The notes under the pieces were generated by a model. The model made no database searches and was not told the DNA's origin. It saw only the letters and a program-made list of their open reading frames with translations. Made by a program: the position numbers and the translations under genes. DNA of 64,000 nucleotides from Candidatus Woesebacteria bacterium (GTDB lineage: Bacteria; Patescibacteriota; Microgenomatia; UBA1400; PJMF01), in the NCBI GenBank assembly GCA_050123235.1, contig JASFHL010000003.1, forward strand, positions 50,077-114,076, written 5' to 3'. This document shows, piece after piece, positions 37,605-55,389 of the stretch. How positions within the stretch are numbered: the first letter of the stretch is position 1; each line of letters starts with the position of its first letter.

Positions 37605-40600
37605 TTGCGGCCAATAAATAATCAGCAGTTCTAATTCTTCACCCTGAGGCAAAATCCAAGCATTGGCCCAACCGTTATATTGCCAATGTGCTAAAGTCTT
37701 CCATAACTTTGGTTTAATAAAAGCTATCCAGCCTCTATCAAAAGCCTGCGGTAAGACTAATAGGCCTTGCTCACTAGATACCTTTATTTTAGCAGCATAA
37801 AAACTAGTACCCCATTTTTTCTGGCTAATTAATTCTGTATCAAAGTTAAGCTTGCTTTGCTCATCTTGGGAATAAATAGAACTTAACCAGGAAAGTGGCG
37901 CAGTGATAAACTCTGAGCGCTCTACTTGAATAATATTTTCTTCTTTACCATAACTCTCAGCACTTAAATTGAGCAAAAAGAAGCCTTTTTTTGCTGAATT
38001 ATTCTTAGAAGGATAAACTGGAAAAAATAAGTTAAAAGCACCATCAGGAGTCATAGCTTCTATATCAGCCCTTTTGGTGAGTGGATTAATCAAAGATAGG
38101 CTAAGACCAACACCTTGACTATTTTCCCCTTTCAAGTGGTATAAATACTCCAATTCAAAATCTAGGCTCGGGTAAATTAAATTCTCGCATAAAATAGCCT
38201 GGTCTTTAGCCCAATATTCAATTCCATTAGCTAAAACCTTTTTCTTTACCTCTCCCTTTTCTTCAAAAGCGCAATTTTTGGCTGCTAGCTCGCGCCCTGT
38301 TTCTTCTTGCCAAGATTTATCAACAACAAAGGCTTTATTTTGACCATAAGGAATAGCTATTGCTAATTCATTATTTTGTTCAAGATCCAAATTTTGCAAT
38401 TTTTGATCAAAGTTTGCTAACTTTTGCTGGATATCTAATTTAAACTCATCTACTAAAGCAAAGTAAAAAACTAAGACATCATCATATTCAATTGATTGAG
38501 GCGTGTCTTTTTCAGTATTTTTGCTTTTGAGATAAACTTCATAATTTTTGCTCAAGTCAATAGCTGCAAATTCTGATACAGACTGCCATTGCTCGCTAGG
38601 TAAAATATAATTTGTATTTTTTGAATTTTCACATTCTTTGCTTGAATCTAATTGATGGATACAAATCTGTGGATACAAATCATCATCTGTTCTGAAACGG
38701 CTAGTGACTGCTACCAAATACTGCCCCTGTCTGTAAGGAAAGCCACCACTGGCTAAGTTGAATTTGACACAAGCATCAGCATTAAATGATGCCAGATGAA
38801 TAGAATCTGCTTTTTTACTAACACTGTGTGTCCTTGTCCAATTTGTCCAACAAGAATCAAGTTCTTTTTCTTTTAAGAACTCAGTAAAATCCTCGCCAGC
38901 AACACTGCTGGTTTGGAAAACTTTTAATTTAGCTTCTTCTTTACTTGATAAAGAAAAACGTCTAATTATTTTTTCTTTCTCTGACAACTCATTAAGATCC
39001 AAATGGATGATATTTTCACCAATTGAAATCAATAATTCCTCTTGACCATTAATTTTTAAGGTCACTGTTTCACTGCTACTAATATTTAAAAGTTCTCGAT
39101 TGCCTTGATAAAGTTGTGGCAATTGTAAGTCAATAGTTAATTCTAAATTATTGTTTTCTTGGCTGGCTAATAAAGCAGCTGGTATTTTAGAAGTTTTACT
39201 TGAAAAAGTAGGGAAAGTTAAAGCTTGCTTTGTTTTTAACTTCAAAGGGATTAATAAGGCACTATCTTTGACTTCAAAGTCAGCCACTGATAACTCTTCT
39301 TTTTGTAAAGCAGAAAATAGATAAGTAATCCCCTGAACTGACTTTTGTAAATAAGGGCCGTGGTCTAGATAAGCTTGATCTTTGCTGGTGTAATCCACAT
39401 GGTAATTCACATCTACTAAAATTACTTCTTTTGGGGTCTCTAAAGATAAATTTTTGCCTTGATTATCAATGCTGTAAAGCTCTAAATTCTTGAATGATTG
39501 CTCTTTTCTAATCGTTGGCAGTTGCTCAAAAAAATCATCAGTCTCTTGAGCAAATCTAGCCTCTACATAACTACCGGGATTAAAAACTGAGCGGTCTAAT
39601 AAAATTAAGTTTGTATGATATTTTTCAAAAGTTTTCTGAAAAGCTGCTTCATCTAGGCTATATAAGGCCCTATTCATTTGCAGAAATGCAGTTTCGTTCT
39701 TTTTACTCCAAGGATCAAAAGAACGATGATGCATTGCTTGAGGAATTGCTTGCCAATCAAAACCAGAACCACGATAACCCCAATCATTAGTATTAGTTAG
39801 CCAACCCCAAAAAGAATGAATTGGAAAACTAGCAATGCGCGATTGCTGGTAATTTTTATCTAAAAATGAAAAAAGCTCAAAGTAATTCGCTGGTACTTTT
39901 ACTCTCAGCAATGGATAAAAAAACAAACCTTTAAAAGCAGGTGAGGCTAAAAATAAGATTAAAATAACAGCTGGTATCAAAAATATACTTGCCAAAAAGG
40001 AATAAAACTTAGATTGGGAAAAAGTTCTTATCAAGAATAAAGTTGTCACTGAAATTAAAATGCTGACTATCAAAGCATAGAGCAAAGCAAACTTGGTAAA
40101 AGTAAAACGAAAAATCTGAGCAAAAAAGGGCACAGTATTTCTCAGAAAAGATGAAATTGAGCCAATAATTGGAATATTTGTCCCTAGCATTAATAAAGCT
40201 AAAGCCCAAATGACTATTAAGGATAAGGGCAAGGCTTTATTCTTTTTCTTAATCAGTGAATAAGAAAGAATAACAATTCCCAATAAAGATAAGACTGTAA
40301 AAAAAATAGCTATTAATTGGTAAGGGCTAGATTGATAAAACTCAAGCCATTCTTTCATAATTGGCCTGAATTGTTTTTCTTCTGGATGCCAATCATAAAA
40401 ACCAAGATGCATACCGCCAAATTTGGCTATTGAAGCTAGATCACCCCAGCGATGACTGCGGTAAAAAATACCTTCAGTAGAAAAGCGATTTTGTTTGGCA
40501 TTGGTGATTTCAGCTGATTTACTTAAGGCTGAATAAACATAAGGTAAGCCCCAAAAAGAATGTACTAGAATTAAAGTCAAGCCTGCAATCAGAACTCTCT

Positions 40601-41357
40601 TGAGTTTATCTTTATTAAGTTTAGAAAAAAGATTAAAAAATAAAATAATAGCCATTACCAATGCATAAGGAATGAAAATAGTGGGCACATGAGCTTGAGA
40701 AACTCCTAATAAATTGAGTAAAATCAAAAAAAAGAGTGCGGAATAGTTTCCCAGACGCAAATAACGCCGTAAAGCCCATATTCCCCAAGGAAAAACTGCA
40801 AAGTGAATCACAAACAACTCAAAAGCCAAGTGATACATTTGGATAGTCATTAGATTGAATTGATAAAATAAAGCGCCAATCAAAGCAGTGCCCATCAACA
40901 ATCGTTGAATTTTTTGATATTTACTATTGCTATGCAGACGATTAGCGATCTTAGTCGAGCTCGCACGCAGGTCTTTTTTCTTTTGAAGACTTAAAACAGC
41001 AGGTAAGATATCTCTATATAAAAGCAAATACATGCCTATCCCACCCAAAAGGTGAGTCAAAACAATAAAAATGTAGCGAAGACTGTTATTGGGAAAAATA
41101 AGAGACAATAAAAAAATATAAAGCCAATGCACTATGTTAGCGCTATGAGCTTGTCCATCAAGCGAGCCGAGACCGCGATATTCTTGCCATAAACTAAAAA
41201 TAATTCGTTTAAGGTTGAGTGAAAAATTAAATTCTGGGGTGGTCACATCCCAACCCAGCAGATACGTCTCCACACCATAATTGCTCAAAAACAAAAGCAA
41301 AGATAATATTGATAAAATTAAAATCGGCAGCAGATGAAATAGCTTTTTTGCTTTCAC
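37515..41357 (-). CDS. 1280-aa polytopic membrane protein with large extracytoplasmic C-terminal domain (possible YfhO/GT-C-like)
   Basis: N-terminal ~20 TM helices then ~650-aa soluble region then C-terminal TM; 90-nt convergent overlap with 36663..37604. Confidence 0.55.
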   Translation of the reverse strand: MKAKKLFHLLPILILSILSLLLFLSNYGVETYLLGWDVTTPEFNFSLNLKRIIFSLWQEYRGLGSLDGQAHSANIVHWLYIFLLSLIFPNNSLRYIFIVLTHLLGGIGMYLLLYRDILPAVLSLQKKKDLRASSTKIANRLHSNSKYQKIQRLLMGTALIGALFYQFNLMTIQMYHLAFELFVIHFAVFPWGIWALRRYLRLGNYSALFFLILLNLLGVSQAHVPTIFIPYALVMAIILFFNLFSKLNKDKLKRVLIAGLTLILVHSFWGLPYVYSALSKSAEITNAKQNRFSTEGIFYRSHRWGDLASIAKFGGMHLGFYDWHPEEKQFRPIMKEWLEFYQSSPYQLIAIFFTVLSLLGIVILSYSLIKKKNKALPLSLIVIWALALLMLGTNIPIIGSISSFLRNTVPFFAQIFRFTFTKFALLYALIVSILISVTTLFLIRTFSQSKFYSFLASIFLIPAVILILFLASPAFKGLFFYPLLRVKVPANYFELFSFLDKNYQQSRIASFPIHSFWGWLTNTNDWGYRGSGFDWQAIPQAMHHRSFDPWSKKNETAFLQMNRALYSLDEAAFQKTFEKYHTNLILLDRSVFNPGSYVEARFAQETDDFFEQLPTIRKEQSFKNLELYSIDNQGKNLSLETPKEVILVDVNYHVDYTSKDQAYLDHGPYLQKSVQGITYLFSALQKEELSVADFEVKDSALLIPLKLKTKQALTFPTFSSKTSKIPAALLASQENNNLELTIDLQLPQLYQGNRELLNISSSETVTLKINGQEELLISIGENIIHLDLNELSEKEKIIRRFSLSSKEEAKLKVFQTSSVAGEDFTEFLKEKELDSCWTNWTRTHSVSKKADSIHLASFNADACVKFNLASGGFPYRQGQYLVAVTSRFRTDDDLYPQICIHQLDSSKECENSKNTNYILPSEQWQSVSEFAAIDLSKNYEVYLKSKNTEKDTPQSIEYDDVLVFYFALVDEFKLDIQQKLANFDQKLQNLDLEQNNELAIAIPYGQNKAFVVDKSWQEETGRELAAKNCAFEEKGEVKKKVLANGIEYWAKDQAILCENLIYPSLDFELEYLYHLKGENSQGVGLSLSLINPLTKRADIEAMTPDGAFNLFFPVYPSKNNSAKKGFFLLNLSAESYGKEENIIQVERSEFITAPLSWLSSIYSQDEQSKLNFDTELISQKKWGTSFYAAKIKVSSEQGLLVLPQAFDRGWIAFIKPKLWKTLAHWQYNGWANAWILPQGEELELLIIYWPQLLNFLGYLLLAGLLIVGATKLFFTYFKKQ

Positions 41358-41384
41358 TCTACTATCATATAATATTTCGTGAAA

Positions 41385-42290
41385 CTAAGACACAGTCGTG
41401 GCAAGCTGCTTCCAACTCCCTTTAAATCGAGCTATAAAAGGAAAAGCTAAATCAAATGGCTTCATGCCTTTCAATACTAAATAAGTGCCAATAGAAAGCC
41501 ATTCTGGCAAAAACAAAATATAAGCGCTTTGCATTAACATTAAAATCAGCATTTTGATGTTCACAGGATAGCCCAAGTCGCGAATTGCATAATATCTTAC
41601 CCTCAAGCTATTAATAAATTTAGCTCGCACATTTTTCATTGAGTTATTGTTACTATGCAAACGATAATAAATTAGCTTTTCTGGTAAATTAGCAAATTTA
41701 CCATTCATCAATAAAGTAAAAAGGGTCATATAATCATCAGCTGAACTGAGTTGATCAGTCCACAACTTTTTTTGATCTGGCAATAAAGATCTCCTCACCA
41801 TAATACTAGGATGCAAAATAGGATGGAAATTACCATATTCTTTGTAAATAGTCTCATGATCTAAAGGAAAAAGTTTATGGCCTACCACTTGCTTATTTTC
41901 GTCAATAATATGACCTTGAGTAGCTACCAAAATATGATCAGGGTTATGATCAAGAAAATAAACTTGTTTAGCAAACCTATCTGGATGAGCAATATCATCT
42001 TGGTCCATCCTAGCAATATACTTTGCTTGAGCTGCTTTGAAACCCACATTAGCTGAAGCTGATTCACCTAGATTCTGCTTATTATTAAGTAATTTAATTC
42101 TTTTATCCTTTTTAAGAAAACTTTTGATGATCTTTTCAGAATTATCGGTACTGGCATCATTGACAATAATCAACTCAAAATCTTTAAAAGACTGTTTTAA
42201 AATACTTTCAATTGCTTCAGCCAAAAAACGAGCGCCATTAAAAACGGGCATGATTACTGAAATAGTAGTTTTTTTTCTATTTTTAGACAT
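41385..42290 (-). CDS. glycosyltransferase family 2
   Basis: ISVIMPVFNGARFL...IIVNDASTDNS. Confidence 0.8.
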   Translation of the reverse strand: MSKNRKKTTISVIMPVFNGARFLAEAIESILKQSFKDFELIIVNDASTDNSEKIIKSFLKKDKRIKLLNNKQNLGESASANVGFKAAQAKYIARMDQDDIAHPDRFAKQVYFLDHNPDHILVATQGHIIDENKQVVGHKLFPLDHETIYKEYGNFHPILHPSIMVRRSLLPDQKKLWTDQLSSADDYMTLFTLLMNGKFANLPEKLIYYRLHSNNNSMKNVRAKFINSLRVRYYAIRDLGYPVNIKMLILMLMQSAYILFLPEWLSIGTYLVLKGMKPFDLAFPFIARFKGSWKQLATTVS

Positions 42291-42305
42291 ATTTTTATTA
42301 AGGAA

Positions 42306-42334
42306 ATTATATCAAGAAAAGTCTTTTTTGTCAA
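42306..42334 (-). promoter_or_regulatory. promoter TTGACA-17-TATAAT (minus) with conserved TATCCTATAG upstream element; short leader
   Basis: revcomp of 42306..42346 gives tatcctatagttttgaca-N17-tataat. Confidence 0.45.
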
Positions 42335-42423
42335 AACTATAGGATATTATTATCTCAAGTACAACTCTTAAAATATAAAAAAATTGAAATTTAGCCAAAA
42401 AAAAGGTTATGATGAATTAAATA

Positions 42424-43926
42424 ATGATTTTTACCAGTAACAGGCGAAATCTAACAATTATGAAAAAAATAACTAAAAACTTTAAACAAAATCTGGGCTT
42501 AATAATTATCCTCACTTTTAGTCTAGCAGTAGGCTTATATCAATTACAAAAACCCATGATTGCCAATTCTGATGCATACATGCATTCCTTAGTAGCTTAC
42601 CGATCATATTTTTATGACCCTCATTATGTCTGGCTTCCTGGCTATAATTATCTAATACATAGCTTGGTTTTAATTTTGCCTCAAAGCTTGAGATTTCTTA
42701 AAATAATTAGGGTTTTTTCCTTAATCTTTTCACTGCTGACTATTATCTTCTCCTATTTACTTGCCAAGAGAATTTTCAAAAAAAACAGCATTGCCAATAT
42801 TACTGCCTTACTCGTAGCTAGTTTACCTATGTTTGTCTTTATGTTTACCCAAAGCTTCCAAGAGGTCGTTTTTATACCTCTGTTCTTGGCTGCTATTTAT
42901 TTTTTAATGGCCAAAAAATCTCCTTTTTTGTCATTGACTTTAAGTCTCTTGCTATTAAATTTAGCTCATAGTATCCGCTATGAAAGCTGGTTTGTTTTAC
43001 CATTATTGTGGCTATATCTTATCTTGAAAAAAAATATCTCTAAAAAATTGAAAATTTATTTTGTGCTGGCTTCTCTAGTTGTGCCTATTGTAATGTCATT
43101 AGTTTTTTATAAATACAATCATAGCCTTTTATTTTTACAAGAATTCCGACAGAAACAACAACAAGGCTATGAAGAAATATTAGGGCCAATTTCTAGTAAA
43201 GGCAATTTAAGTCAAAGCATGATTAAGTTTTCAGAATTCTACACTAGCGTTTTTGATTTAGCATATATTGCTCTAGCTATCTTGAGCTTTCTATTAATAG
43301 CCAAAAGAAACAAAAAAACTTATTTACTCTTTTTTCTCCCTTTACTGCTTTTAGCTCTACAGTTCTGGTCTTTTTTTAATGGATCTAATGTTGATCCTCA
43401 TGACAGGTATTTTCTGATTCCTGCTATCATCCAAATGCCATTTGTAGCCTTGGTGCTAAATAAAATTATCAAAGCAAAACCCTTTTTCTCTAAAGCATCA
43501 ATTCTCAATTTCTTAATCCTCTTGCCATTATCGACCCTTGTCTACGTTAACCAATATCAAAAAAGCAAAGTTAAACATTATCAGCATGAATTAATTGGTA
43601 TTCGAGATAATATTGAACAATTAATAGTAGTAGGTAAAGGTGTACAAGAGCATGTAATTAATGAAAGTTACTATGCTTTTTTTCCTGTAGATCAAAATAA
43701 TTACCATGTAGGCAAGGCTATTGAATACTTCTCTGATAGAGTACAAATCCCCATGCCTCGTGAGCAATTAAATCCAGATGATGTTTTTGCTAAAGGAGTG
43801 AACATTGCTGTGCTTGAAACTGAAGGAGAGATTGAAGCTGATTATTTAAATTCTTTGCAAATGGAGATGGATTTACTCGATCAAAACATTGGACAAAGAT
43901 CATACTACACTTTTATTATGAAGTGA
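42424..43926 (+). CDS. GT-C fold glycosyltransferase (ArnT/PMT_2-like)
   Basis: polytopic; first-loop acidic motif NSDAYMHSLVAYR; true start may be MKKITKN at 42460. Confidence 0.55.
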   Translation: MIFTSNRRNLTIMKKITKNFKQNLGLIIILTFSLAVGLYQLQKPMIANSDAYMHSLVAYRSYFYDPHYVWLPGYNYLIHSLVLILPQSLRFLKIIRVFSLIFSLLTIIFSYLLAKRIFKKNSIANITALLVASLPMFVFMFTQSFQEVVFIPLFLAAIYFLMAKKSPFLSLTLSLLLLNLAHSIRYESWFVLPLLWLYLILKKNISKKLKIYFVLASLVVPIVMSLVFYKYNHSLLFLQEFRQKQQQGYEEILGPISSKGNLSQSMIKFSEFYTSVFDLAYIALAILSFLLIAKRNKKTYLLFFLPLLLLALQFWSFFNGSNVDPHDRYFLIPAIIQMPFVALVLNKIIKAKPFFSKASILNFLILLPLSTLVYVNQYQKSKVKHYQHELIGIRDNIEQLIVVGKGVQEHVINESYYAFFPVDQNNYHVGKAIEYFSDRVQIPMPREQLNPDDVFAKGVNIAVLETEGEIEADYLNSLQMEMDLLDQNIGQRSYYTFIMK

Positions 43927-43933
43927 TAAAAAA

Positions 43934-43959
43934 ACACCCTCAAAGGAGAGTGTTTTTTA
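43934..43959 (+). terminator. rho-independent terminator (acaccctc-aaag-gagagtgt + TTTTTT)
   Basis: seen in sequence after GT-C gene stop; A-run upstream. Confidence 0.45.
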
Positions 43960-44013
43960 CTTGTGTTTATCTAGACTACATAATCTAGACTTAACTAATT
44001 TAATAATTTCTAA

Positions 44014-44298
44014 TTATTGAATTAGTTCATAACCATTATTTCTGACACATTGCTCATAGATAGTGCCATTAGGCATTTCTGAGGTAGTGACAGTGTCTTT
44101 CTTCTCATCGATAGTTTCGATGGTCACTTTACTAGCCATAGCACAATCTTTAATAGCTCTGCTTTTAAGATCTTTTTCTTTGAAAGCTAAAACGCTTTGC
44201 ACAGAAAGATAAAGAACCAGAGCCAAAACCATGGCACTCAAAAGCATAAATACTGGACGCATAACTAGGCCCAGCTCTTTAAGGTTAGGCTTTTGCAT
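44014..44298 (-). CDS. small membrane-anchored hypothetical protein
   Basis: single N-terminal TM. Confidence 0.35.
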   Translation of the reverse strand: MQKPNLKELGLVMRPVFMLLSAMVLALVLYLSVQSVLAFKEKDLKSRAIKDCAMASKVTIETIDEKKDTVTTSEMPNGTIYEQCVRNNGYELIQ

Positions 44299-44417
44299 AG
44301 ACTTTCCTTTCTTTTTAAAATTTAGCTAGCTAACTAATAATGAAAAATGTTTAGCTAAATTTTATTTTTTAATTAATAACAAACTTGAGGCAGCAATCTG
44401 GTGATTAATGACTAAAG

Positions 44418-44452
44418 TTTGTGCCCCTCGTCCTCCAGGTGAGGGGCACAAA
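44418..44452 (-). terminator. hairpin tttgtgcccctc/gaggggcacaaa (12-bp stem) downstream of lipoprotein gene
   Basis: seen in sequence. Confidence 0.4.
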
Positions 44453-44575
44453 GCACACGAAAGCGAAATTGGCAGCTGGTCAAGCGCGCTGGGTGGAGCC
44501 CGGGGTGTCGCTCGTGGTGCAGACGATGCGCGCACCACTTGGGACGATGCTAGTAGGGTGGGCATGAAGCCCTCC

Positions 44576-45715
44576 CTACTGAATCATACCTGAGTAGGTG
44601 GGCAGCTCGAGCAGAGCCTGCTGCGGGATGTCAAGCAGGGTGACGCTGACCCAACCAATTCTCTTGTCGGGCGCATCATACAGGAGTACGCGCGCGCCGT
44701 TATCCGAGAGCTGGACGGGGTATACACCGATAAGGCTCCCATTGAACAATCCAGTAGGTTGGCTGGATTCGGGAGTTCTATAGGTGACAGCGCCGCGCTT
44801 ACCACCTTCCACCCAATCCACCGCGTACAAAAAGCCCTGCCAGCGGAATGAGAACCCGCCGGCCGCGCCGCCCACGTTGTCTACGCGAGCGCAGGCAGCA
44901 TTGGGCCCTGTAACGAGCATAAAGCTCCCGTTCGCAAAAGAACCAGCAAACTCACCCAACGACAGCGGCCCCTCGCAGTCAAGGTCATATGAGACCTTAC
45001 TGCTCAAGAAAAGCCCCGAATAAAACGTCCCCTGCACGACTTCCGGGTAGGTATGTTTAGGATCCGGATATGTCTGATCCGGCCCCCAGAACATTACTGA
45101 CACTGAGTGGGCCGCCTTCGTGCTGGGGTCGCCCGGGGTGTCTGGCGCGAGATCTGGCTGAAAACAAAAGCCGTACTCATCGCACTCGACATTGAACCTG
45201 TCGTCACGCACGCCGCCCGACCAACCGGAAAAGGCAAAGGGCTCCAGCCCCGCCTCTCCCCGTCCCTCGTCCGAGTACGGAAAGGGGCGGTCGTTCCCCC
45301 AGTACGCTTCGCGGGAGGGCAGAGCGGCGGTGGCGTCGGCGTCTGCCTCGGGCGCAGGGTTGTCGGCGAGTTGGGGGGTGGCGGTCGGTGTGGGCGTGTC
45401 AGCGGGCCTGGCCGACTGCGCAGTCGCCGCCAGCTCCATGCCCGACAGCGCCCCCTCGGGCCCGCCACCGTCACCCAAAAACGCCTGTTGCGTGGCTAAC
45501 TCGGCCGACAACTCCTCCACCCGCCCAGCAGCCACCACGCGCGTGGCGACCATCTCGGCCGTGGCCGTGGCCTCAGCCCGGGCAACCTCGTCGGTTGCCC
45601 TGACCTGGGCCGTAGCCAGCTCGTCACCAGCCGGCAGCGAGTTCGAGTCTTTGTTACAGCCACTGGCCACCAGCAGCAGCAGCCCAAACAACACCAAAAA
45701 AAACTTCTTATCCAT
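44576..45715 (-). CDS. lipoprotein (signal peptide + lipobox LVASGC), Ala/Thr-rich linker, unknown C-terminal domain; high-GC codon usage
   Basis: MDKKFFLVLFGLLLLVASGC; strong SD; overlapping plus-strand ORFs 45107/45192 are GC-rich artefacts. Confidence 0.65.
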   Translation of the reverse strand: MDKKFFLVLFGLLLLVASGCNKDSNSLPAGDELATAQVRATDEVARAEATATAEMVATRVVAAGRVEELSAELATQQAFLGDGGGPEGALSGMELAATAQSARPADTPTPTATPQLADNPAPEADADATAALPSREAYWGNDRPFPYSDEGRGEAGLEPFAFSGWSGGVRDDRFNVECDEYGFCFQPDLAPDTPGDPSTKAAHSVSVMFWGPDQTYPDPKHTYPEVVQGTFYSGLFLSSKVSYDLDCEGPLSLGEFAGSFANGSFMLVTGPNAACARVDNVGGAAGGFSFRWQGFLYAVDWVEGGKRGAVTYRTPESSQPTGLFNGSLIGVYPVQLSDNGARVLLYDAPDKRIGWVSVTLLDIPQQALLELPTYSGMIQ

Positions 45716-46891
45716 GATGTACTACCTCCTTATGTCTGTGGCACATCCCCCTCATGGAACGCGGCCCCTTAGGCTTTCGGCTTGGGGTCCGCTTCAGGGA
45801 GTGCCTGGGTTTGGGCCGGCCAGCGGCGCGATCCTCGTCGCGCTCCGCATTGCCAGCCCTATTCAAAGAAATAAAGTGGGTCGCACGGCTCGACGACCCC
45901 CGTCCGTAACGCGTGCCCCGCAGACCGCGCTGCCGGGGGGACTTAGCCGTTCGGCTCAGAGGGTCGCACCGCGCGCAACCATGAGCAAGTCCAGTCTAAA
46001 GAAAACTCATTTTCTTCACACTGGACTTGCCCAGTTTCATTTATCTATTTTTTTTAATTAGGAGGTTGTTTTTTCCACCATTTCTAAAACCCCAATTTAC
46101 TAATTTAATTTCGCCAATTTATGAAATCCATAACTGCAACTAATTTCTAATCACAAAATTATAGATTTAATTTAATACTTGTGTGCTTTGTTAAAGAGCT
46201 GTTTTAACTATCAATAAAAATTATTTTTAGTAAAACTACCCTGCTAAAAAAAATTTCTCTCCCGCCAAAAAGCTCGTCATTGAGCCTCAGGCAAGTAAGC
46301 AGACATTTTCAAAATAAAAATGCCTAAGATTAATCTTCAGCGTAATTTTTATTTAAAAAAAATAAAAACATCACTAAAGACTAATTTTTAGCAGCTACCA
46401 GATCAAATTATAACACTTTTTTATTACTTCTGTCAATGTTATAGGACTTTTGAAAATTACACTTTATGTAATCTTTCTCATCTAAAATAATAAGTATGAA
46501 ATTAAATCAAGCTCAAAATAAATTAATGGCTAAGCTTCATATTGATCTCGCTAAAAATTTCGCTGTCACAGTATTAATTAATGAAACTAATAAAATAAAC
46601 AATACCCTAAATAAGACAATATTTATTATGACTTGTGGTATAATATTTTTATCTTTAATTCTATTATCATTAGATTATTTAAAGAAGGTAAAATGAATTT
46701 TAATTTAGAAGCAATTTATGAAGGGGTTTATTCTTTTCAATTGTTGATAGTTCTTACAGGAATTTTTGGAGCATTAGTTTTGATCTCTCACAGGATGGGT
46801 AGCAAAGACAAAAAAGATAAAAAATAATCTTAATCTTATCTAAAGATTATCTTTTTTTATGTTGAGGATTGAAACATCTAAATATTTAATA

Positions 46892-47053
46892 AACAACTTA
46901 CTACAAATAAATATTAGAGTGTTGAAGCGAGGTCTGGCCAGGATCGAACTAGCAATCAATTTACTGCCGAGCTTCACTGAGTGAGCCTTGTATCTTAAAA
47001 ACAAATAAAATGCTGTAGCGAACGACTCTAATATTTATTTGTAGTAAGTTGTT
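46892..47053. repeat. family-1 palindrome-embedded element, copy 2
   Basis: 104-nt core flanked by 29-bp perfect IR aacaacttactacaaataaatattagagt (46892-46920 / 47025-47053). Confidence 0.65.
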
Positions 47054-47082
47054 GAATATATAAATTATAATATTTTTTTTAA

Positions 47083-48123
47083 TCACTCAGCATAAAAATC
47101 AAGATATATCTCTACCACTTGTTCCCAGCTTTGTTTTTTAGCCAAGTTATAAACTTTTTTAAGAAACTGTTCTTTTTTTTGACTATTTTTTTGATAATCT
47201 TTGATTTGATCAGCTAATTTTTCAGGTGAACTATCAATCAGAAGATAATCTTTAAATAAGCTCATCTTAAGGTAATCTTCCCTCAAGTGATTATCATAAG
47301 CAGCCACTACTAGACATTGATGTATCATGCCTTCTAACATAGAAAGATAACCTCCAGCAAAACATATTTCTGCCTTTTTTAGGTAGCTTCGATAATCTTT
47401 GGCTAGCAGAAAACCATGTACTTTACCATATTTTTTACATTCTGTTCTCAAAGGCCCATCACCACAGAAATTAACTCGATAGTCTGGTAATAGGGCTAAA
47501 GTTGCTAGCAAAACATCTAGTCCATTATCTTGGTCTAAGCGCCCCAGATAGACTATAGATTTTGCTTTTTTTCTGCTAGCGGTCACCCCTAAATGCCTCA
47601 CGCCGCCATAAAGCAGAGCATCAGCTTTCACTGCATAATATTTCTCAATATAGCTACCAACACAAATTACCTTATCTGCTAATTTAGCTGCCAGCCGTTT
47701 ATACAAAATATTTTTTTTAGGAATAGGGAAACTGCCTTCCCAGCCATGCATGGTGAGCACTATTTTTTGTTTTGGCCAAAGATGTATTAAAGATAATAAT
47801 TTAAATGGCCAGAACCAGATTGAAACATCATGGATATGGATTAGTTTAATTTTAAATAACTCTTTAGAAATAAATAATTTAAATAATTGCCACCAGATAA
47901 CCAGCAAGCCCAAAAATTTAATTTGAGGATAGCTAAAACGAATTATTCTTATGCCATCAATTTCCTCTTCATCTTTTAAATCAGTTTTATGTTTGGGGCT
48001 TAGGACTACAATTTGATAGCCTTTTTGAGCTAAAATTTGATTAGTTTCTCTGAGGTGAGTTTCTACCCCACCTAAACTAGGATGATAAGCAGGAGCTAAA
48101 ATTAAGAGTTGTTTTTTTTTCAT
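47083..48123 (-). CDS. glycosyltransferase family 1 (GT4-like)
   Basis: N-terminal LILAPAYHPSLGGVETH, C-terminal GT-B fold pattern. Confidence 0.75.
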   Translation of the reverse strand: MKKKQLLILAPAYHPSLGGVETHLRETNQILAQKGYQIVVLSPKHKTDLKDEEEIDGIRIIRFSYPQIKFLGLLVIWWQLFKLFISKELFKIKLIHIHDVSIWFWPFKLLSLIHLWPKQKIVLTMHGWEGSFPIPKKNILYKRLAAKLADKVICVGSYIEKYYAVKADALLYGGVRHLGVTASRKKAKSIVYLGRLDQDNGLDVLLATLALLPDYRVNFCGDGPLRTECKKYGKVHGFLLAKDYRSYLKKAEICFAGGYLSMLEGMIHQCLVVAAYDNHLREDYLKMSLFKDYLLIDSSPEKLADQIKDYQKNSQKKEQFLKKVYNLAKKQSWEQVVEIYLDFYAE

Positions 48124-48148
48124 TGCTAAAATCTATTATAATCTAAAT

Positions 48149-49126
48149 ATGACTCAGCCAAGCAAAACAAGTATTTCGCTCATTATTACTGTACTTAATG
48201 AAGAAAAAACAATTAAGCTTTTACTAGATGCTATTAAAAAACAGAACCTGCTGCCTTCAGAAATAATCATAGTTGATGGAGGCTCAACTGATCGAACTTT
48301 GAAGATCATCCAAAAATTTGCCCAAAAAAATCCCAAGTTAAAAATCAAAAGTTTTGTCAAAAAAGGTAATCGGAGCGTAGGGCGAAATTTCGCCATTCAA
48401 GAGGCAAAAAATCAGTTAATTGCCATCACTGACGCCGGTTGTATTCCTCAGCGTGATTGGTTAGAGCAGTTGTATAAAAAATGGCTAGAGGCAAACTCAA
48501 GCGATGATAAAAAGCAGCAAACTAAGGTAGTGGCTGGTTATTATCAAGGCCAAGCAGACACTGCTTTTCAAGAAGCAGTCATTCCTTATGTTTTAGTGAT
48601 GCCAGAGCGAGTGAATGAGAAAAATTTTCTGCCAGCCACGCGCTCGATGCTGATTGAGAAATCTATCTGGCAGCAAGTCAATGGTTTTGATAAAAAATTA
48701 AATTACAATGAAGATTATGCTTTTGCTAAAAAACTAAAAAAACAGGGCTTTAGAATCGTTTTTGCTAAAAAAGCTGTGGTAGACTGGCTACCCAGAACTA
48801 ATTTAAAGGCTTTTATGAAAATGATTTATCTGTTTGCTCGAGGTGATATTGAGGCTGGTATCCTGCGACCGAAGGTGATTCTGATTTTTGCTAGGTATTT
48901 TTTGATGGTGTTTATCTTAGTTTTGCTAGAATGGAAAATTTCTGGCCAAACTGCTTTATTAGTTGCGCTAACTGCCTTAATCATTTATTCAGCCTGGGCA
49001 ATTGTTAAAAACCTTAAATATACGCCCAAAGGCTGGTTCTATCTGCCTCTTCTTCAAATCAGCTCTGATTTAGCAGTCATCTTAGGTAGTCTGAGAGGAT
49101 TTTTTATTTACTATTTTTTAAAATAA
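48149..49126 (+). CDS. glycosyltransferase family 2 with C-terminal TM helices
   Basis: ISLIITVLNEE...IIVDGGSTDRT. Confidence 0.75.
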   Translation: MTQPSKTSISLIITVLNEEKTIKLLLDAIKKQNLLPSEIIIVDGGSTDRTLKIIQKFAQKNPKLKIKSFVKKGNRSVGRNFAIQEAKNQLIAITDAGCIPQRDWLEQLYKKWLEANSSDDKKQQTKVVAGYYQGQADTAFQEAVIPYVLVMPERVNEKNFLPATRSMLIEKSIWQQVNGFDKKLNYNEDYAFAKKLKKQGFRIVFAKKAVVDWLPRTNLKAFMKMIYLFARGDIEAGILRPKVILIFARYFLMVFILVLLEWKISGQTALLVALTALIIYSAWAIVKNLKYTPKGWFYLPLLQISSDLAVILGSLRGFFIYYFLK

Positions 49127-49148
49127 AAATCTTGAAGAGAGTGACAAG

Positions 49149-49307
49149 AACATTAATATATATAAATATGAGAGCGTTGAAGCGAGATCTGGCTAAGTTT
49201 ACATTAGCAAAAAACATACTACCGAGCTTCACTGAGTGAGCCTAGTATCTTAAAAAAAGAAGAAATGTTGCAGCGAACGACTCTTAGATTTATATATAGT
49301 AATGTTC
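49149..49307. repeat. family-1 palindrome-embedded element, copy 3
   Basis: core conserved with copies 1 and 2; 27-bp flanking IR gaacattaatatatataaatatgagag / revcomp with 2 mismatches + 1 wobble. Confidence 0.6.
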
Positions 49308-49378
49308 TAGATAACTTCTTAAAGTTTACCGCGACTGTGTCTTATTTTAAAAAGATAGTAAGTGAAATAAAGAAACAA

Positions 49379-49465
49379 AAAAACCGCGTCTGCCTAATTT
49401 GTCTGACAAATCGGGCAGACGTTAATCGATTCCTAAAATAAGGGAATTTAAGAGACGCGGTTTTT
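49379..49465. terminator. bidirectional terminator: 13-bp outer stem aaaaaccgcgtct/agacgcggttttt enclosing inner hairpins
   Basis: T-runs on both strands; spans stop codon of 49448..49840. Confidence 0.5.
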
Positions 49466-49840
49466 AAGTTTTAGAATGCTAGCAAAAGCTCCACCCATTA
49501 AAGTGGTGATAGCAGCTAAGCTAGTTTTGAAGTCTAAAGCTGTATCGGCAGGTTCATGTACCTTGACGGGTTTACCATCAACATAAATGATTGTCTCGCC
49601 TTCAGCTGTTTGCTCTTGACTGATTCGTTGAGCTTGAACCTGAGCTTGATCTAATTCACAAACTAATTCAACGTCTTGTCCATAAGCTCCACTGGAGACA
49701 TAGCGACATTCAGCTGATTGAGCTTGAGCTTGAACCTGCTCAGCTTCTTGGCTCTGTTCTTGAGCTAAGACTGGAAAGCTAGCTTGACTTAGCATTAAAG
49801 CTGCTAAGGCTAATGCTGACACGAGTCTGAACTTTTTCAT
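49448..49840 (-). CDS. secreted Gln-rich hypothetical protein
   Basis: signal peptide MKKFRLVSALALAALMLSQASFPVLA. Confidence 0.4.
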   Translation of the reverse strand: MKKFRLVSALALAALMLSQASFPVLAQEQSQEAEQVQAQAQSAECRYVSSGAYGQDVELVCELDQAQVQAQRISQEQTAEGETIIYVDGKPVKVHEPADTALDFKTSLAAITTLMGGAFASILKLKNRVS

Positions 49841-49971
49841 TAGCTCCTTTCCTCTATTAATATTACAAAGACATCACTAGATGTAATTTGAAATATTAAT
49901 ATATTTTTATAAGTATGTAAAATAATACTATAAGACTATCACTTTGTCAATAATTATGAGGATGTTGTTAA

Positions 49972-51207
49972 TTAATAATTCACATGGAGATAATAAGTGC
50001 TAATGCCATCTTCTTTATGTTTAACCTTAACATAGCGCAAGTAACCACCACCACAAGCAATACTACCTCGATAAAGTTCACCTTCTCTAACTGCTTTGAC
50101 AGTATAATCTGAGCTTGTTTTACTAACTAAATCAATGCCTGAATGGGGCAAACCACCATAGTAACGTTTAACTCTAGCGTAGTAGGTCATACCATAGCCT
50201 TGAGTAACTCTAGCAGCATTATTAACTGGCCATTGCCAACTACCACTGAAACCAAAAGGTCCATCTGGGCTATTGTCCCAATTGATACTTTCACTTTTTA
50301 AATAAGAAGCTGGATCTCTATGAGCACCATCTTTAACTATCTCAAAATGTAAATGAGTACCAGTAGAACAAGCACTAGCTCCAGCAATAATTGAAGCAAT
50401 TTTTTCACCTTCTTTAACATCTTTAACCTTAGTTTCTGTACCTCTGCCAGCAATAATTGATTGGATAGCTTTTAATTCACCCAGGGTTTTAGCCAATTCT
50501 TGCTGATAACGAGCTTCGTTATTTTGAGTTTCCTGCAAAAGATACTGTTGCTCTTGTTTTCTCTTGGTTAAAGTATTCTGCTGAACCTCTAAAACTTGCT
50601 TTTTTCCCTCAAGTTCTGTTTGCTTTTCCTCTTTAAGGGTTTTTTGTTCGTGATAAGTTAAACGCTGAGTTTCAGCCAATTGCATTGCTCGAGCAGTTTG
50701 TTCTTCTGCTTTTCTTAGATAATAAAGATTGGCAATTAATTTATTAAGTGACTTTTCTTTAACTAAAATAGTCAAATCAAGACTGCTGGCTTTTTGCTTA
50801 TAATCAGCTTGTACTCTTTCAATCAAAATATTGGTCAGGCGATCGAGTGATAAACCCAAACCATTGATTCGATCAGTCAATACCTTAATTTCCTTTTCCA
50901 ATTTGTTGATTTCAGAGATAGTTTGCTCTATTTGTAATTGCTGAAGAGAAATTTCTCCATTGATAATATTGATTGTATTGGTCAGAGTGATGCTAGCATC
51001 TTGAGCTTCTTTAATTTTCCGCTCCAAGCAGGCTTGCTTTTCTTTATTACAATTTAAATAAGCATCTTCATCTTGAGTATCCCTAGAACAAACAATCTTA
51101 TCGCAATTTTCAGCAATCACAAGAGGAACTAGGACTCTCAAGCGAAAGACAGCCATGAAAAAAACAAAAATGAGACTAGAAATAAAAAAGATAGTCCTTT
51201 TTTTCAT
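49972..51207 (-). CDS. M23 (LytM) family metallopeptidase with N-terminal coiled coil (EnvC-like)
   Basis: HxH motif context GTHLHFEI; long coiled-coil; sits downstream of ftsEX. Confidence 0.75.
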   Translation of the reverse strand: MKKRTIFFISSLIFVFFMAVFRLRVLVPLVIAENCDKIVCSRDTQDEDAYLNCNKEKQACLERKIKEAQDASITLTNTINIINGEISLQQLQIEQTISEINKLEKEIKVLTDRINGLGLSLDRLTNILIERVQADYKQKASSLDLTILVKEKSLNKLIANLYYLRKAEEQTARAMQLAETQRLTYHEQKTLKEEKQTELEGKKQVLEVQQNTLTKRKQEQQYLLQETQNNEARYQQELAKTLGELKAIQSIIAGRGTETKVKDVKEGEKIASIIAGASACSTGTHLHFEIVKDGAHRDPASYLKSESINWDNSPDGPFGFSGSWQWPVNNAARVTQGYGMTYYARVKRYYGGLPHSGIDLVSKTSSDYTVKAVREGELYRGSIACGGGYLRYVKVKHKEDGISTYYLHVNY

Positions 51208-51279
51208 TAAAACCTTAATTATGAAATAGTATAACGCATAACTAGACTTTCAGTAGAATAAGGAAAAGCTCGCCAAAGT

Positions 51280-52149
51280 CTATTTTTTGATCAATCTAGC
51301 AACTGCAATTAAACTAGCAAAAGCTGACAATAAAATTCCAGCTGCAGTGCCAATGACTAATTGATAAACAAAAATACTCCAATGAATTGGCCAAGAAATG
51401 ATGCTGCTTAAAAAACCCCGGAGTAAAGGACTAGCATAAAGGAAACCTAGCAACATCAAGCCCCAACCAAAGAGAGAACTCAGCACTGAGTAGATTACAA
51501 CTTCAAGTAAAAAAGGAGCAAAAATAAAAGATTTACTTGCCCCAATAATACTCATTACTGCAATGCTGTTTTTCTTATTAGAAATTTTAAGACCTAAAAT
51601 AATAATCAGCAGCAAAAAAGAAGTCACAGCCAAAATTATTACACTCACAATTCCTGTCATTCTCAAAAATGAAGCCCAGTTATTGAGTGCCTTAATAATA
51701 TCTTGCTGTAAAACTACATCTTCGATTTCTGAATAAGCCTCCAAATCTTTCTCTACTTTAGTTAAATACTCTAGTTCAGTAGCTGAAACTTCAATACTAG
51801 CAGGCAAGATATCTGCTGTTACCAATTCTAAAAGCAGGGGATTACTTTTATAATCTTCTTGATAAATATTTAGAGCTTCTTCCTTGGTCACGATGGTAAC
51901 AGTTTCTGTATAATCCTTAGCTTCCATCTCAGCAGCAATTTCTTTGATTTCTTGAGTTTCTGTACTAAGATGGAAAAAGGCAATTACTTCTGGTCTAGTT
52001 TCAAAAAATTGAACAATAGCTTTAGCACCGAGCATGGTCAAAGAAAATGTGTAAGCTACAAAAAAAGTAATTGTAATCATTAAGACAGCTACCATCGCTT
52101 GGTAGGGGGTACGTCGAATATTAGTGAGTGCTGTGTTTAAAGCTTTCAT
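51280..52149 (-). CDS. ftsX: FtsX-like permease
   Basis: N-terminal TM, periplasmic domain, three C-terminal TMs; 4-nt overlap with ftsE. Confidence 0.7.
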   Translation of the reverse strand: MKALNTALTNIRRTPYQAMVAVLMITITFFVAYTFSLTMLGAKAIVQFFETRPEVIAFFHLSTETQEIKEIAAEMEAKDYTETVTIVTKEEALNIYQEDYKSNPLLLELVTADILPASIEVSATELEYLTKVEKDLEAYSEIEDVVLQQDIIKALNNWASFLRMTGIVSVIILAVTSFLLLIIILGLKISNKKNSIAVMSIIGASKSFIFAPFLLEVVIYSVLSSLFGWGLMLLGFLYASPLLRGFLSSIISWPIHWSIFVYQLVIGTAAGILLSAFASLIAVARLIKK

Positions 52150-53180
52150 TTTGTTGATTTTTTCTTTCCAAAGACTGATTTAATTTTTTTAAAACCTAAT
52201 TTTAATCTTGTCTTTTTTTTGCTTGCTTCTTCAGTTTTATCTTCTTGATCTTTACTAACTTCTGAGCTTGCTTTTTCTTCATTTGTCTCGCTTTCTTCAT
52301 CTACTACTTCTAAAACTAGTTTTCTTTTGCCAGATTTTTTAGCTTTTTTACTTTTTTCTTCTTTCTCAGTTTTACTGCTTTGCTCATCATCTTTTTTGGC
52401 TTCTTTCTTTGATTCAAGTTGAGCTTCCTCCTTATCTTCTTTTTTTGCTGGCTCATGCTCGTCATCGCTGTTCAAATCTAAAACTTTTTTAGCCTTTATT
52501 TTTAGTTTAGCTTTATCAGCTGTGTCTTTGACTTTTTGACCTTGATCAAGAGATATTTTGCGATATTTATTTAAAGAATCTAGCACCACTGAATCGTGAG
52601 TGGCTAATAAAAGAGTAGTTCCTAGATCATTGATCTTTTTTAAAATCTTAATAATACCTTGGCTAGTATCAGGATCAAGATTACCAGTTGGTTCGTCAGC
52701 AAAAATAAGTTTAGGGCCAGTGGCTAAAGCTCTGGCAATGCTAATTCGTTGAGCCTCCCCACCAGAAAGCTGATTAGGAAACACTAAGGCTTTATCCGTC
52801 AAAGAAACGAGTTTGAGTAAATCAGTCACTCTAGTTTCTATTTCACTCTGACTTTTACCAATAATATATAGTGGTAGAGCAATGTTCTCCCAAACATTCA
52901 AATCAGGAATTAATTTGTAATCTTGAAAAACCACTCCAATTTTACGTCTATGATGAGGAATTTGAGATTTTTTAAGTTCTTGAACAGCTTGATCCAAAAA
53001 AATAATCTCACCACTACTAGGTAGGTATTCTCTTATTAAGAGTTTCATTAAAGTAGTTTTACCACTTCCGGAAGGACCGGTGATCAAAACTAACTCTCCT
53101 GGATCAACAGCAAAATCTACATCTTGGATGGCAATAGTGCCATTGGGGAATTGTTTACTAACATCAGAAAATCTAATCAT
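52146..53180 (-). CDS. ftsE: cell-division ABC ATPase FtsE with ~120-aa Lys/Glu-rich C-terminal extension
   Basis: Walker A GPSGSGKTT, signature LSGGEAQRISIARAL, Walker B LIFADEPTGNLD. Confidence 0.85.
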   Translation of the reverse strand: MIRFSDVSKQFPNGTIAIQDVDFAVDPGELVLITGPSGSGKTTLMKLLIREYLPSSGEIIFLDQAVQELKKSQIPHHRRKIGVVFQDYKLIPDLNVWENIALPLYIIGKSQSEIETRVTDLLKLVSLTDKALVFPNQLSGGEAQRISIARALATGPKLIFADEPTGNLDPDTSQGIIKILKKINDLGTTLLLATHDSVVLDSLNKYRKISLDQGQKVKDTADKAKLKIKAKKVLDLNSDDEHEPAKKEDKEEAQLESKKEAKKDDEQSSKTEKEEKSKKAKKSGKRKLVLEVVDEESETNEEKASSEVSKDQEDKTEEASKKKTRLKLGFKKIKSVFGKKKSTK

Positions 53181-53252
53181 ACACTAGTTATTAAAGCATT
53201 AAAAAGGGATGGAATTCAATAGAAGCTTGCTCATTAGACTTGTAGCAAAATA

Positions 53253-53272
53253 AAATTTAATAGCCTGCTAGG
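53253..53272 (-). terminator. short hairpin aatagcct/aggctatt followed by U-run on minus strand
   Basis: seen in sequence. Confidence 0.3.
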
Positions 53273-53896
53273 CTATTCTTCAACTGGAGCTTCACCGTCG
53301 ACATTAAGTACCTCAACTCGACCAACATCCATCAGCCAACCAGCCTTTTGAGCTTTAAAAGTTTCACCTGCTACTTTGACATTCATACCTACAAACTTAT
53401 CAAGATCTGTAGTGGAAGAAGTTAGATAAACGGTTTGTGATTCACCACCGGGACGGAGTAGACGATGAGAGCCTTCATCTTCAATACCACCAGATTCTAG
53501 ATAACCCTCTGCTTTGTCGTCACCAAAAATGCTTTCGTCTTTGACACCATAAACATCACCATTTTTAATGGTATCACCAGCCACCCGTTGCTCTATTTCC
53601 ACTGAACCACTCCCAGATCGAGATTTGCTTCTCAACTTATATGCCCCAACGCCTGTGGCTGTTCCAGCAACAATTGAGATAACAGTAATTAACAATAAAA
53701 TTTGTTTAGATTTTTTTCTCATATCTCTCCTATCTATTTTCTCAGCCTCTGCTGCTTGCAGATCTTTTAATTTAAGTGAAGAGCTTTGATTGTCTCCGAC
53801 AACTTTTGTTTCGTCAATATCTGTTTCTTTAGTTGTTTTACCTTGAATCGGATTTTCTGCATTTTTTGTTTTGGAATGAAAATATATTTTCTTCAT
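53273..53896 (-). CDS. membrane-anchored hypothetical protein
   Basis: single TM after charged N-terminus; probable start MKKIYF at 53896 rather than track 53977. Confidence 0.4.
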   Translation of the reverse strand: MKKIYFHSKTKNAENPIQGKTTKETDIDETKVVGDNQSSSLKLKDLQAAEAEKIDRRDMRKKSKQILLLITVISIVAGTATGVGAYKLRSKSRSGSGSVEIEQRVAGDTIKNGDVYGVKDESIFGDDKAEGYLESGGIEDEGSHRLLRPGGESQTVYLTSSTTDLDKFVGMNVKVAGETFKAQKAGWLMDVGRVEVLNVDGEAPVEE

Positions 53897-55359: not shown

Positions 55360-55389
55360 CTAAATATAAACACCCATATTTTAATTTAA

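Follow-up and report, generated by a model that had tools for sequence, protein, structure and literature searches.

Horizontally acquired genomic islets are recognised by their atypical composition, within what is known as the amelioration framework. Loci for O-antigen, capsule and S-layer glycosylation typically have a lower guanine-plus-cytosine (GC) content than the genome around them, and it is their sugar genes that deviate. In Actinobacteria, O-mannosylated lipoproteins are substrates of the GT-C enzyme Pmt and carry linkers rich in Thr, Pro and Ala. The AT-rich genome of Cryptosporidium canis holds GC-balanced subtelomeric genes that encode lineage-specific, disordered host-interaction proteins (PMC10438818), and gene transfer agent (GTA) clusters are elevated in GC at codon positions one and two (GC1 and GC2) but not at position three (GC3), and encode proteins rich in cheap amino acids (PMC7360931). 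Here we describe, with reference to these systems, a locus from a Candidatus Woesebacteria metagenome-assembled genome (MAG), analysed as a stretch of 64,000 nucleotides of contig JASFHL010000003.1 (hereafter the window). It contains a GC-rich block, island 2, whose single convincing gene is the open reading frame ORF379, predicted to encode an exported lipoprotein. Island 2 is probably one instance of a lineage-wide pattern and not a stray foreign insert, since a conserved slot in many related bacteria holds GC-rich secreted-protein genes. The block and its edges comprise the following features.

44421–45996, no strand assigned: GC-rich block (island 2), 1576 bp, 62.7% GC, from change-points, composition and a Logan contig
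44576–45715, minus strand: ORF379, predicted exported lipoprotein gene, 379 aa; at NCBI, hypothetical protein PVJ09_02300 of a Candidatus Woesebacteria MAG
45716–45996, minus strand: GC-rich non-coding leader, ~280 nt, 64.6% GC
45878–45899, minus strand: terminator-like hairpin and T-run within the leader, from a terminator scan
45982–46033, no strand assigned: junction inverted repeat at the AT-to-GC transition, from a repeat search and folding
44421–44449, minus strand: GC hairpin, GTGCCCCTC / GAGGGGCAC, exactly on the left change-point, which is the 3′ edge of the block
46407–46436, minus strand: predicted sigma-70 consensus promoter (TTGACA, 18-nt spacer, TG, TATAAT), 12/12 matches

Maximum-likelihood change-points placed the edges of island 2 at 44421 and 45996, with a GC content of 0.627 inside versus 0.321 in the left flank and 0.300 in the right flank, bearing out the sharply bounded block that had been described in an earlier reading of the letters without database searches (the sequence-only reading). 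The composition switches within ~50 nt at each edge. The host is a Woesebacteria genome of ~33% GC, the contig from which PVJ09_02300 derives measures 125,990 bp, and the window keeps to a background of ~33–36% GC except for its two GC-rich blocks. ORF379 was taken as coding because of its GC1/GC2/GC3 values of 0.64/0.51/0.72 together with a conserved homologue; in host genes, GC3 is 0.25–0.34, GC1 ~0.45 and GC2 ~0.30. The elevation also extends to the leader and to a non-coding trailer of ~170 nt (60% GC), such that the non-coding flanks of ORF379 within island 2 have a GC content of 0.60–0.65. Only the start of the gene leans towards AT, as the sequence-only reading had pointed out for the first ~10 codons: codons 1–10 have 27% GC and codons 11–30 have 63%.

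The un-host-like composition that had been claimed for the block is equally clear at the dinucleotide level. At the codon 3-1 junction, the observed/expected ratio of CpG is 0.97 in island 2 and 0.94 in the other GC-rich block of the window (island 1), versus 0.46 in the host (34 genes, 0.47 ± 0.19, maximum 0.91). The delta* distance between both islands is 56, versus 135–186 between island and host (135 for island 2) and 63–75 ± 20 between host chunks and the host, which upholds the idea that the islands have a composition signature in common.

An exhaustive phmmer search of 1.84e9 representative proteins retrieved only ORF379 itself and one homologue, P0122 (286 aa; phmmer E 2.6e-11; BLASTP 32% identity over 250 aa, query residues 139–379), and no homologue in any GC-rich organism was present among these representatives. 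Word-index searches of 5.8e9 clusters, profile searches and GTDB genomes yielded no further relative, and ORF379 had no match in Pfam, NCBIfam, PHROGs or PDB sequences. The family is therefore known from two Patescibacteria contigs only, of 34% and 46% GC. A phage or plasmid origin was considered and found unsupported, as searches of viral contigs, phage records, plasmids and PHROGs yielded no relatives. P0122 shares the invariant Cys residues C184, C247 and C275 of ORF379, and carries a signal peptidase I-type site (ANA/Q) without a lipobox.

The contig that carries P0122 (L002; 28 kb, 46% GC, Microgenomates) stems from a different run and organism, and can be compared with the window through the following genes next to island 2.

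44014–44298, minus strand: p94, 94-aa membrane-anchored two-Cys protein, AT-rich; conserved downstream partner of ORF379, also in L002, L016, L019 and L048
42424–43926, plus strand: PMT_2-family (GT-C) membrane glycosyltransferase (Pfam PF13231, E 5.8e-9), between p94 and GT2
41385–42290, minus strand: GT2 glycosyltransferase (Pfam PF00535), conserved partner of the anchor gene
37515–41357, minus strand: anchor, 1280-aa multi-pass membrane protein without Pfam match, which marks the locus across Microgenomates

On the minus strand, the window thus reads ORF379, p94, (PMT_2 on the opposite strand), GT2 and anchor. L002 is collinear with it and presents, in order, FtsE, FtsX, an M23 peptidase (62% identity), a small protein, a variable glycosyltransferase block, the ORF379 homologue, a 94-aa gene (27% identity to window 44014–44298, E 2e-12), GT2 (60%), the 1280-aa membrane protein (40%) and RmlD (61%). 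The glycosyltransferase content around this conserved core differs between both loci. By anchor identity (40%), L002 is the closest relative of the window among all loci compared, while being distant from it. P0122 has a GC3 of 0.50, equal to that of its own anchor. Because P0122 is syntenic yet native in composition, the slot appears to have been occupied in the common ancestor of the window and L002, with the GC anomaly being specific to the lineage of the window.

The slot was then followed across lineages by using the 1280-aa anchor as probe against one genome per GTDB species. This yielded 48 loci extending +/-10 kb only, to which the counts below add L002 (49 loci). All anchor loci with informative titles were from Microgenomates-type Patescibacteria, the anchor-type proteins measured 1000–1300 aa, and a GT2 homologue was situated directly upstream of the anchor in 46/49 loci. 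With GC-high DNA defined as at least 400 nt at a GC content at least 0.15 above that of the anchor, in loci whose flank measured 2 kb or more, such DNA was found upstream of the GT2–anchor pair in 25/42 loci versus downstream in 3/34 (Fisher p = 3.8e-6), corresponding to 10.3% versus 1.1% of bases. The GC-rich slot segments examined encode proteins co-oriented with the anchor, with a signal peptide, often a lipobox, a Pro/Thr/Ala-rich linker and a small Cys-containing domain. Pfam revealed no significant family in these proteins, except for one PKD domain, and because the GC-rich segments of six related loci gave no Rfam match, they are not rRNA or tRNA.

ORF379 lies upstream of the GT2–anchor pair and co-oriented with it, displays the same layout of signal peptide/lipobox, linker and Cys domain, and exceeds its anchor in both GC (0.63 vs 0.34) and GC3 (0.72 vs 0.28), where an excess of at least 0.12–0.15, GC3 included, defines the class. 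By BLAST, the slot genes comprise one large family and several small ones, with ORF379 and P0122 forming a separate family. With hhalign, the ORF379 domain matched the L021/L028 family at a probability of 19.7% and the large family at 0.05%, and neither hmmsearch nor jackhmmer on six-frame translations of all loci linked it to other slot families. Since homology to these families is unsupported, ORF379 is assigned to the class by position, architecture and composition.

All homologues of slot genes detected by tblastn were GC-elevated (+0.05 to +0.25). L048, a locus without a flagged segment, harbours a secreted-protein gene of 0.44–0.51 GC between flanks of 0.32–0.38, followed by GT2, p94 and the anchor. 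A scan of Joint Genome Institute (JGI) metagenomes for one slot family, with a three-sequence subset of its 13-sequence alignment, revealed four more contigs in which the homologue forms a spike of 0.50–0.54 GC. Three of these contigs are at ~0.30–0.32 GC and the fourth (1.26 kb) is at 0.44 GC, and no GC-rich genomic context for the family turned up in the scan.

In a set of 35 slot genes picked by a GC threshold, the mean excess over the anchor was +0.22 for GC and +0.31 for GC3. These genes have ~60% GC and a GC3 of ~0.67 in hosts that range from 24 to 50% GC, with no significant dependence of slot-gene GC (slope 0.12, p = 0.3) or GC3 (slope 0.00, p = 0.99) on host GC. Their leaders have a GC content of 0.52–0.55 from –120 to –21, which dips to 0.45–0.47 from –20 to +30 and reaches 0.61–0.63 beyond, a shape that fits a GC-rich transcript whose ribosome-binding site is kept accessible. 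Strong Shine-Dalgarno sequences are common among slot genes. A blastn search for a conserved leader across them found nothing beyond duplicate MAGs, and a hairpin at the 5′ boundary was present in L016, L023, L044 and the window, with a mixed picture class-wide.

The nearest neighbour by anchor shared the slot family in 12/23 loci versus 2.1 expected (permutation p < 0.0005), and anchor identity was 40.4% in family-sharing pairs versus 34.9% in others (Mann-Whitney p = 7e-5). As family sharing tracks anchor phylogeny, the slot genes are largely inherited together with the locus. At the same time, the identity of some slot-gene pairs exceeds that of their anchors (61% vs 33%; 66% vs 44%), showing that lineages have exchanged some of them. 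No near-identical GC-rich cassettes were found between divergent loci; L015/L035 and L017/L031 are the same organisms.

In some relatives, two to five GC-rich exported-protein genes are arrayed in tandem within the slot (L024 6558–8249, L030 4326–8950). Both L024 slot genes reach a GC3 of 0.88 versus an anchor GC3 of 0.35, and one of the two has an internal duplication of the ~100-aa domain of its family. Loci L010–L017, L019, L020, L024–L026, L029, L030, L035, L043, L046, L047, L049 and L050, binchicken/SRP co-assembly MAGs among them, come from MAGs titled Gammaproteobacteria, Pseudomonadales, Planctomycetales, Eubacteriales or Saccharibacteria, and L044 from an SMAG titled Bathyarchaeia. 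Because all of them carry a Microgenomates-type locus, these taxonomic labels look wrong.

The lineage-wide GC-rich exported-protein slot appears to be undescribed so far: our searches of the open-access full-text literature brought up no account of such GC-rich genes for exported proteins in candidate phyla radiation (CPR) bacteria, which is absence of evidence and not proof of novelty.

We regard it as an even bet that ORF379 is a resident, lineage-specific member of this slot whose GC content is maintained. Its slot lies upstream of a module of GT2 and a giant membrane protein, within a cell-envelope locus of Microgenomates, and high GC would be a property of the gene class of the slot instead of the scar of a one-off insertion. 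Because the elevation spans the 5′ leader, stops at the 3′ hairpin and dips only near the ribosome-binding site, the block looks like one transcription unit. A persistent local force favouring GC could then be at work. The likeliest candidates are repair biased towards GC in the course of frequent exchange of alleles at a hypervariable surface locus, and selection for a stable mRNA rich in GC, singly or together. The ends of the block at hairpins and the GC dip at the ribosome-binding site fit the latter candidate, as does RNase Y, which favours AU-rich RNA and is encoded on the contig just past the end of the window. More broadly, and with somewhat less confidence, we propose that Microgenomates hold fast-evolving surface-protein genes at fixed positions and ~60% GC through a local GC-favouring process, of which the islands of the window would be the most extreme cases. 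Repair biased towards GC at a recombination hot spot would be one form of that process, and selection for GC-rich, nuclease-resistant mRNA the other.

Several points weigh against maintained GC. To our knowledge, no documented bacterial process keeps GC3 at 0.7–0.9 in genomes with a GC3 of 0.2–0.35. The copy in the window bears marks of recent arrival, namely its CpG ratio, its ~50-nt edges and the terminator-like hairpin in its leader. The native composition of P0122 indicates that the GC rule is not universal, and the slot-gene pairs that surpass their anchors in identity point to exchange. Moreover, the slot counts rest on +/-10 kb loci instead of whole genomes, and picking the 35 genes by a GC threshold biases both the regression and the leader/start profile.

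Such marks make recent xenologous allele replacement a serious rival, because the window copy is free of CpG depletion and sharply bounded at hairpins, although we rate it as less likely than maintained GC. A homologous cassette of promoter region, coding sequence and terminator would have taken the place of the resident gene. It would stem from a GC-rich donor that remains to be sampled, be it the host of the organism or a GC-rich relative in which the same locus occurs, and would be as yet unameliorated, with island 1 derived from the same or a similar donor. The GC3 of ORF379, the CpG ratios, the likeness of both islands in dinucleotides that set them apart from the host, the sharp edges on both sides and the GC-rich non-coding flanks are all consistent with this scenario. 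The hairpin in the leader would fit a relic of the upstream gene of the donor, the slot genes that are closer than their anchors show that exchange occurs, and a common pool of GC-rich donors would be expected to yield genes of ~0.6 GC irrespective of the host. However, neither the 1.84e9 representatives nor the 5.8e9 clusters contain a donor-like homologue, the family is limited to the two Patescibacteria contigs, and the JGI contigs of another slot family are AT-rich with the gene as a spike. Class-wide, replacement would require invisible GC-rich donors for most Microgenomates lineages, whereas the families follow the phylogeny of the recipients across divergences so deep that amelioration ought to have run its course.

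The edges of island 2 also lack signs of mobility: the tRNA scan found no tRNA adjoining the block, the repeat search found no direct repeats bracketing it (only one hairpin per edge), and no integrase was evident in the ORF lists for 43–47.5 kb, where small ORFs were partly Pfam-scanned and no dedicated integrase search was made. The proposal of the sequence-only reading that both islands are independent single-gene foreign insertions therefore finds partial support only: the composition speaks for it, whereas the syntenic homologue, the absence of homologues from GC-rich organisms and the slot being GC-high in 25/42 loci speak against it. Likewise, the target of a diversity-generating retroelement was rejected, as no template/variable-like repeat involves the gene (30–50 kb) and no reverse transcriptase occurs among the Pfam-labelled neighbours, with part of the window ORFs scanned.

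The lack of CpG depletion can be read in another way. The host is strongly CpG-depleted and GpC-enriched (rho 0.48 and 1.46 in host genes, e.g. 1987–33000 and 47000–63200), and in the CpG-depleted hosts L025, L030, L036 and L044 the slot genes likewise escape depletion. Since they do so in these four other hosts, a normal CpG level would be another property of the slot class and not a time stamp. Most related Microgenomates loci are without CpG depletion (mean 0.91), which suggests that the depletion in the host stems from a lineage-specific process targeting CpG (methylation plus deamination, or restriction avoidance). A type I restriction-modification system (HsdM/HsdS) is encoded at ~10.4–14 kb.

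A far less probable explanation is that protein-level selection by itself produced the GC excess, with exported proteins favouring cheap, small residues (Ala/Gly/Pro/Thr) and avoiding Lys, Ile and Asn. ORF379 is indeed enriched in Ala (12.7% vs 7.0% in the host), Gly (10.8% vs 5.0%) and Pro (7.4% vs 3.2%), and poor in Lys (2.1% vs 10.1%) and Ile (1.1% vs 7.7%), its GC1 and GC2 are raised, and the GTA genes provide a precedent in which cheap amino acids raise GC1 and GC2 (PMC7360931). In that precedent, however, GC3 is not elevated (PMC7360931), whereas here GC3 rises most (+0.31 as class mean, +0.44 in the window) and the non-coding leader and trailer rise along with it. Moreover, the composition profile is free of GC anomalies at the genes for an M23 peptidase and a DUF4012 protein in the window and for SBP_bac_5 on its contig, all of families that are usually exported. 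Selection for cheap residues thus accounts for the rise in GC1 and GC2, to which it may contribute, but not for GC3 or the non-coding flanks, which largely refute it as the sole cause.

Finally, an assembly chimera or contaminant join, the misassembly that the sequence-only reading had been wary of and that an abrupt 30-point GC change on both sides of a single-gene block in a MAG could suggest, has next to no likelihood, given that a Logan contig from an independent assembly of SRR11698124 is 100% identical over window 39783–49200 (9418 bp) and crosses both junctions, that the protein is on record from both JGI and NCBI sources, that a homologue occupies the same slot in a different organism from a different run, and that the pattern is repeated in dozens of MAGs from unrelated studies.

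The product of ORF379 itself, under the reading of a resident slot gene with maintained GC, is probably a lipid-anchored surface protein, judging from the following features of its translation and start region.

45724–45731, minus strand: Shine-Dalgarno sequence AAGGAGGT, 8 nt before the ATG
45656–45715, minus strand: predicted signal peptide and lipobox (MDKK, 13-residue hydrophobic core, A-S-G-C, Cys20), from the translation read by eye
45311–45655, minus strand: low-complexity stalk, residues 21–135; an Ala/Glu/Thr/Arg-rich part, then a Pro/Thr/Ala linker
44579–45310, minus strand: C-terminal domain, residues 136–379; Cys-containing and the sole part with a homologue (P0122)

The N-terminus reads MDKKFFLVLFGLLLLVASGC, with MDKK (KK as n-region) followed by FFLVLFGLLLLVA when the signal peptide is read by eye. 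The lipobox context is L-V-A-S-G-C with Cys as residue 20, in accordance with the 379-aa minus-strand lipoprotein gene, LVASGC lipobox and linker that the sequence-only reading had recognised, and its Shine-Dalgarno claim was equally sound, with AAGGAGGT at 45731–45724. The stricter lipobox [LVI][ASTVI][GAS]-C is not exactly matched, position –3 being Ala and not Leu; the motif presumably fits the broader PROSITE pattern PS51257. Genes for Lgt or signal peptidase II were not seen among the Pfam-labelled parts of the window. The protein would be exported via Sec, lipidated at Cys20 and located on the membrane's outer face, where its Ala/Glu- and Pro/Thr-rich stalk could display a Cys-containing, probably beta-rich domain of ~245 residues. 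An AlphaFold model of the C-terminal domain from the two-sequence alignment reached a predicted local distance difference test score (pLDDT) of 29 and was unusable. The stalk might plausibly be a substrate of the adjacent GT-C-type glycosyltransferases (the PMT_2 gene and the anchor).

The anchor-type large protein is itself probably an uncharacterised GT-C-type envelope glycosyltransferase, as far as its sequence can tell; the match of its C-terminus to mycobacterial AftD (PDB 6W98, 6WBX) is non-significant (E 0.8). GT2 resembles a generic polysaccharide GT-A enzyme, and its PDB matches include no polyprenol-phosphate sugar synthase. The p94-type proteins of ~90 aa combine a single N-terminal transmembrane helix with a two-Cys motif (C-x-x-x-S-K-V-T ... 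Y-x-x-C), have no family in Pfam or PHROGs, and accompany the exported-protein gene or the GT2–anchor pair in several lineages (L002 8489–8773; L048 9639–9905; L019 7238–7438; L016 2666–2791).

Transcription of ORF379 may be driven by the candidate sigma-70 promoter at 46436–46407, which lies in AT-rich host DNA ~690 nt upstream of the ATG and is directed at the gene. The scan of the coding strand gave no consensus promoter within the GC-rich leader. The leader has no match to an RNA family in Rfam (searched over the window, and over 44300–47150 at a relaxed threshold); the stretch 45700–46040, which takes in the junction hairpin as well, has a fold z-score of –5.2. The hairpin at 45878–45899 might serve as an attenuator, or might have been the terminator of an upstream gene that has since been lost. 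The junction repeat consists of 24-nt arms (45982–46005 / 46010–46033) that are 88% complementary and sits exactly on the right change-point; the 10-bp inverted repeat reported earlier at this junction is thus real but part of a longer one. At the opposite edge, the GC hairpin that had been taken for a terminator does exist (44449–44421), but it lies ~130 nt past the ORF379 stop and has no U-tract, and the terminator scan did not pick it up.

Island 1 had been listed in the sequence-only reading alongside repeats termed Family-1, and both proved to be present in the window.

34021–36554, plus strand: island 1, the second GC-rich block, with a 716-aa gene for a right-handed beta-helix protein with a signal peptide, GC3 0.81
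33453–33602, 46898–47047 and 49153–49302: three copies of the Family-1 repeat, 81–88% identity, from a repeat search

Island 1 is situated across the anchor/RmlD core from island 2, and its end coincides exactly with a GC hairpin terminator (36526–36555). Its best homologues are ~32% identical, with P0010 stemming from the same JGI sample (3300042731). P0007, from a 66% GC non-CPR contig (L057), was rejected as a donor since at ~32% identity it is too distant to be named as such. A near-perfect sigma-70 consensus (11/12) at 32933–32961 on the plus strand lies in AT-rich DNA upstream of the island 1 gene and points to it, such that predicted promoters stand 0.7–1.4 kb upstream of both island genes with long leaders in between. 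ARAGORN additionally called a 70-nt tRNA-Leu with the unusual anticodon AAG at 32475–32544 (minus strand), which is absent from the Rfam tRNA matches at the gathering threshold and may be a pseudogene or false positive.

Family-1 is a ~180-nt element with 38-nt terminal inverted repeats and a 104-nt core containing the tRNA T-arm-like GGATCGAAC, and looks like a miniature inverted-repeat transposable element or a small structured RNA. All copies fall within the envelope locus, one of them being upstream of and co-oriented with each island, and two copies in direct orientation flank a GT4/GT2 block (47083–49126). The element has no Rfam match and is absent from all 50+ related loci. The search for a boundary motif shared by the islands, which the sequence-only reading had recommended, found none beyond the Family-1 copy upstream of each.

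Compositional islands in MAGs are routinely read as contamination or recent transfer, and here a 30-point GC jump is not an artefact and probably not a one-off insertion. CPR bins would lose these genes if filtered by GC or tetranucleotides. Should the pattern hold genome-wide, it would constitute a strong local decoupling of gene and genome composition in bacteria, and a natural test bed for GC-biased gene conversion versus selection on GC. The slot genes would encode variable exposed surface proteins of episymbiotic ultra-small bacteria, and as exposed surface proteins beside envelope glycosylation machinery they are prime host-contact candidates. If true, a local process that keeps such a positionally fixed gene class GC-rich would provide a bacterial counterpart of the GC-rich contingency/surface-gene compartments in AT-rich eukaryotic parasites. 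ORF379 alone is modest in this respect; it is the lineage-wide pattern that is unexpected.

Compared with the known systems, island 2 resembles a genomic islet in that it consists of a single gene for a surface protein, has sharp edges and deviates in GC, GC3 and dinucleotides. Unlike an islet, it shows no mobility genes, tRNA target or direct repeats and has no donor homologues, its site is filled by a homologue in the nearest relative, and its deviation recurs lineage-wide independently of host GC. Among four hallmarks of genomic islands it thus displays only one, its composition, while an empty site in relatives, mobility signatures and donor homologues were not found. With hypervariable surface loci it shares a variable glycosyltransferase mosaic between conserved genes, a fast-diverging surface protein and an odd composition, but here the deviant genes are far higher in GC and encode exported proteins instead of sugar-pathway enzymes.

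Compared from sequence alone, the O-mannosylated lipoproteins of Actinobacteria are matched by ORF379 in lipobox, Pro/Thr/Ala linker and small globular domain, with a PMT_2-family GT-C gene next door, but not in sequence homology, and GT2 resembles polysaccharide synthases. GTA clusters likewise comprise genes for released proteins that are GC-richer than the genome and use cheap amino acids (PMC7360931), whereas in the slot class it is GC3 and the non-coding flanks that rise most. Although C. canis is a eukaryote with telomeres and meiotic recombination, its position-restricted, lineage-specific GC-rich genes for cell-interface proteins make it the closest analogue found (PMC10438818).

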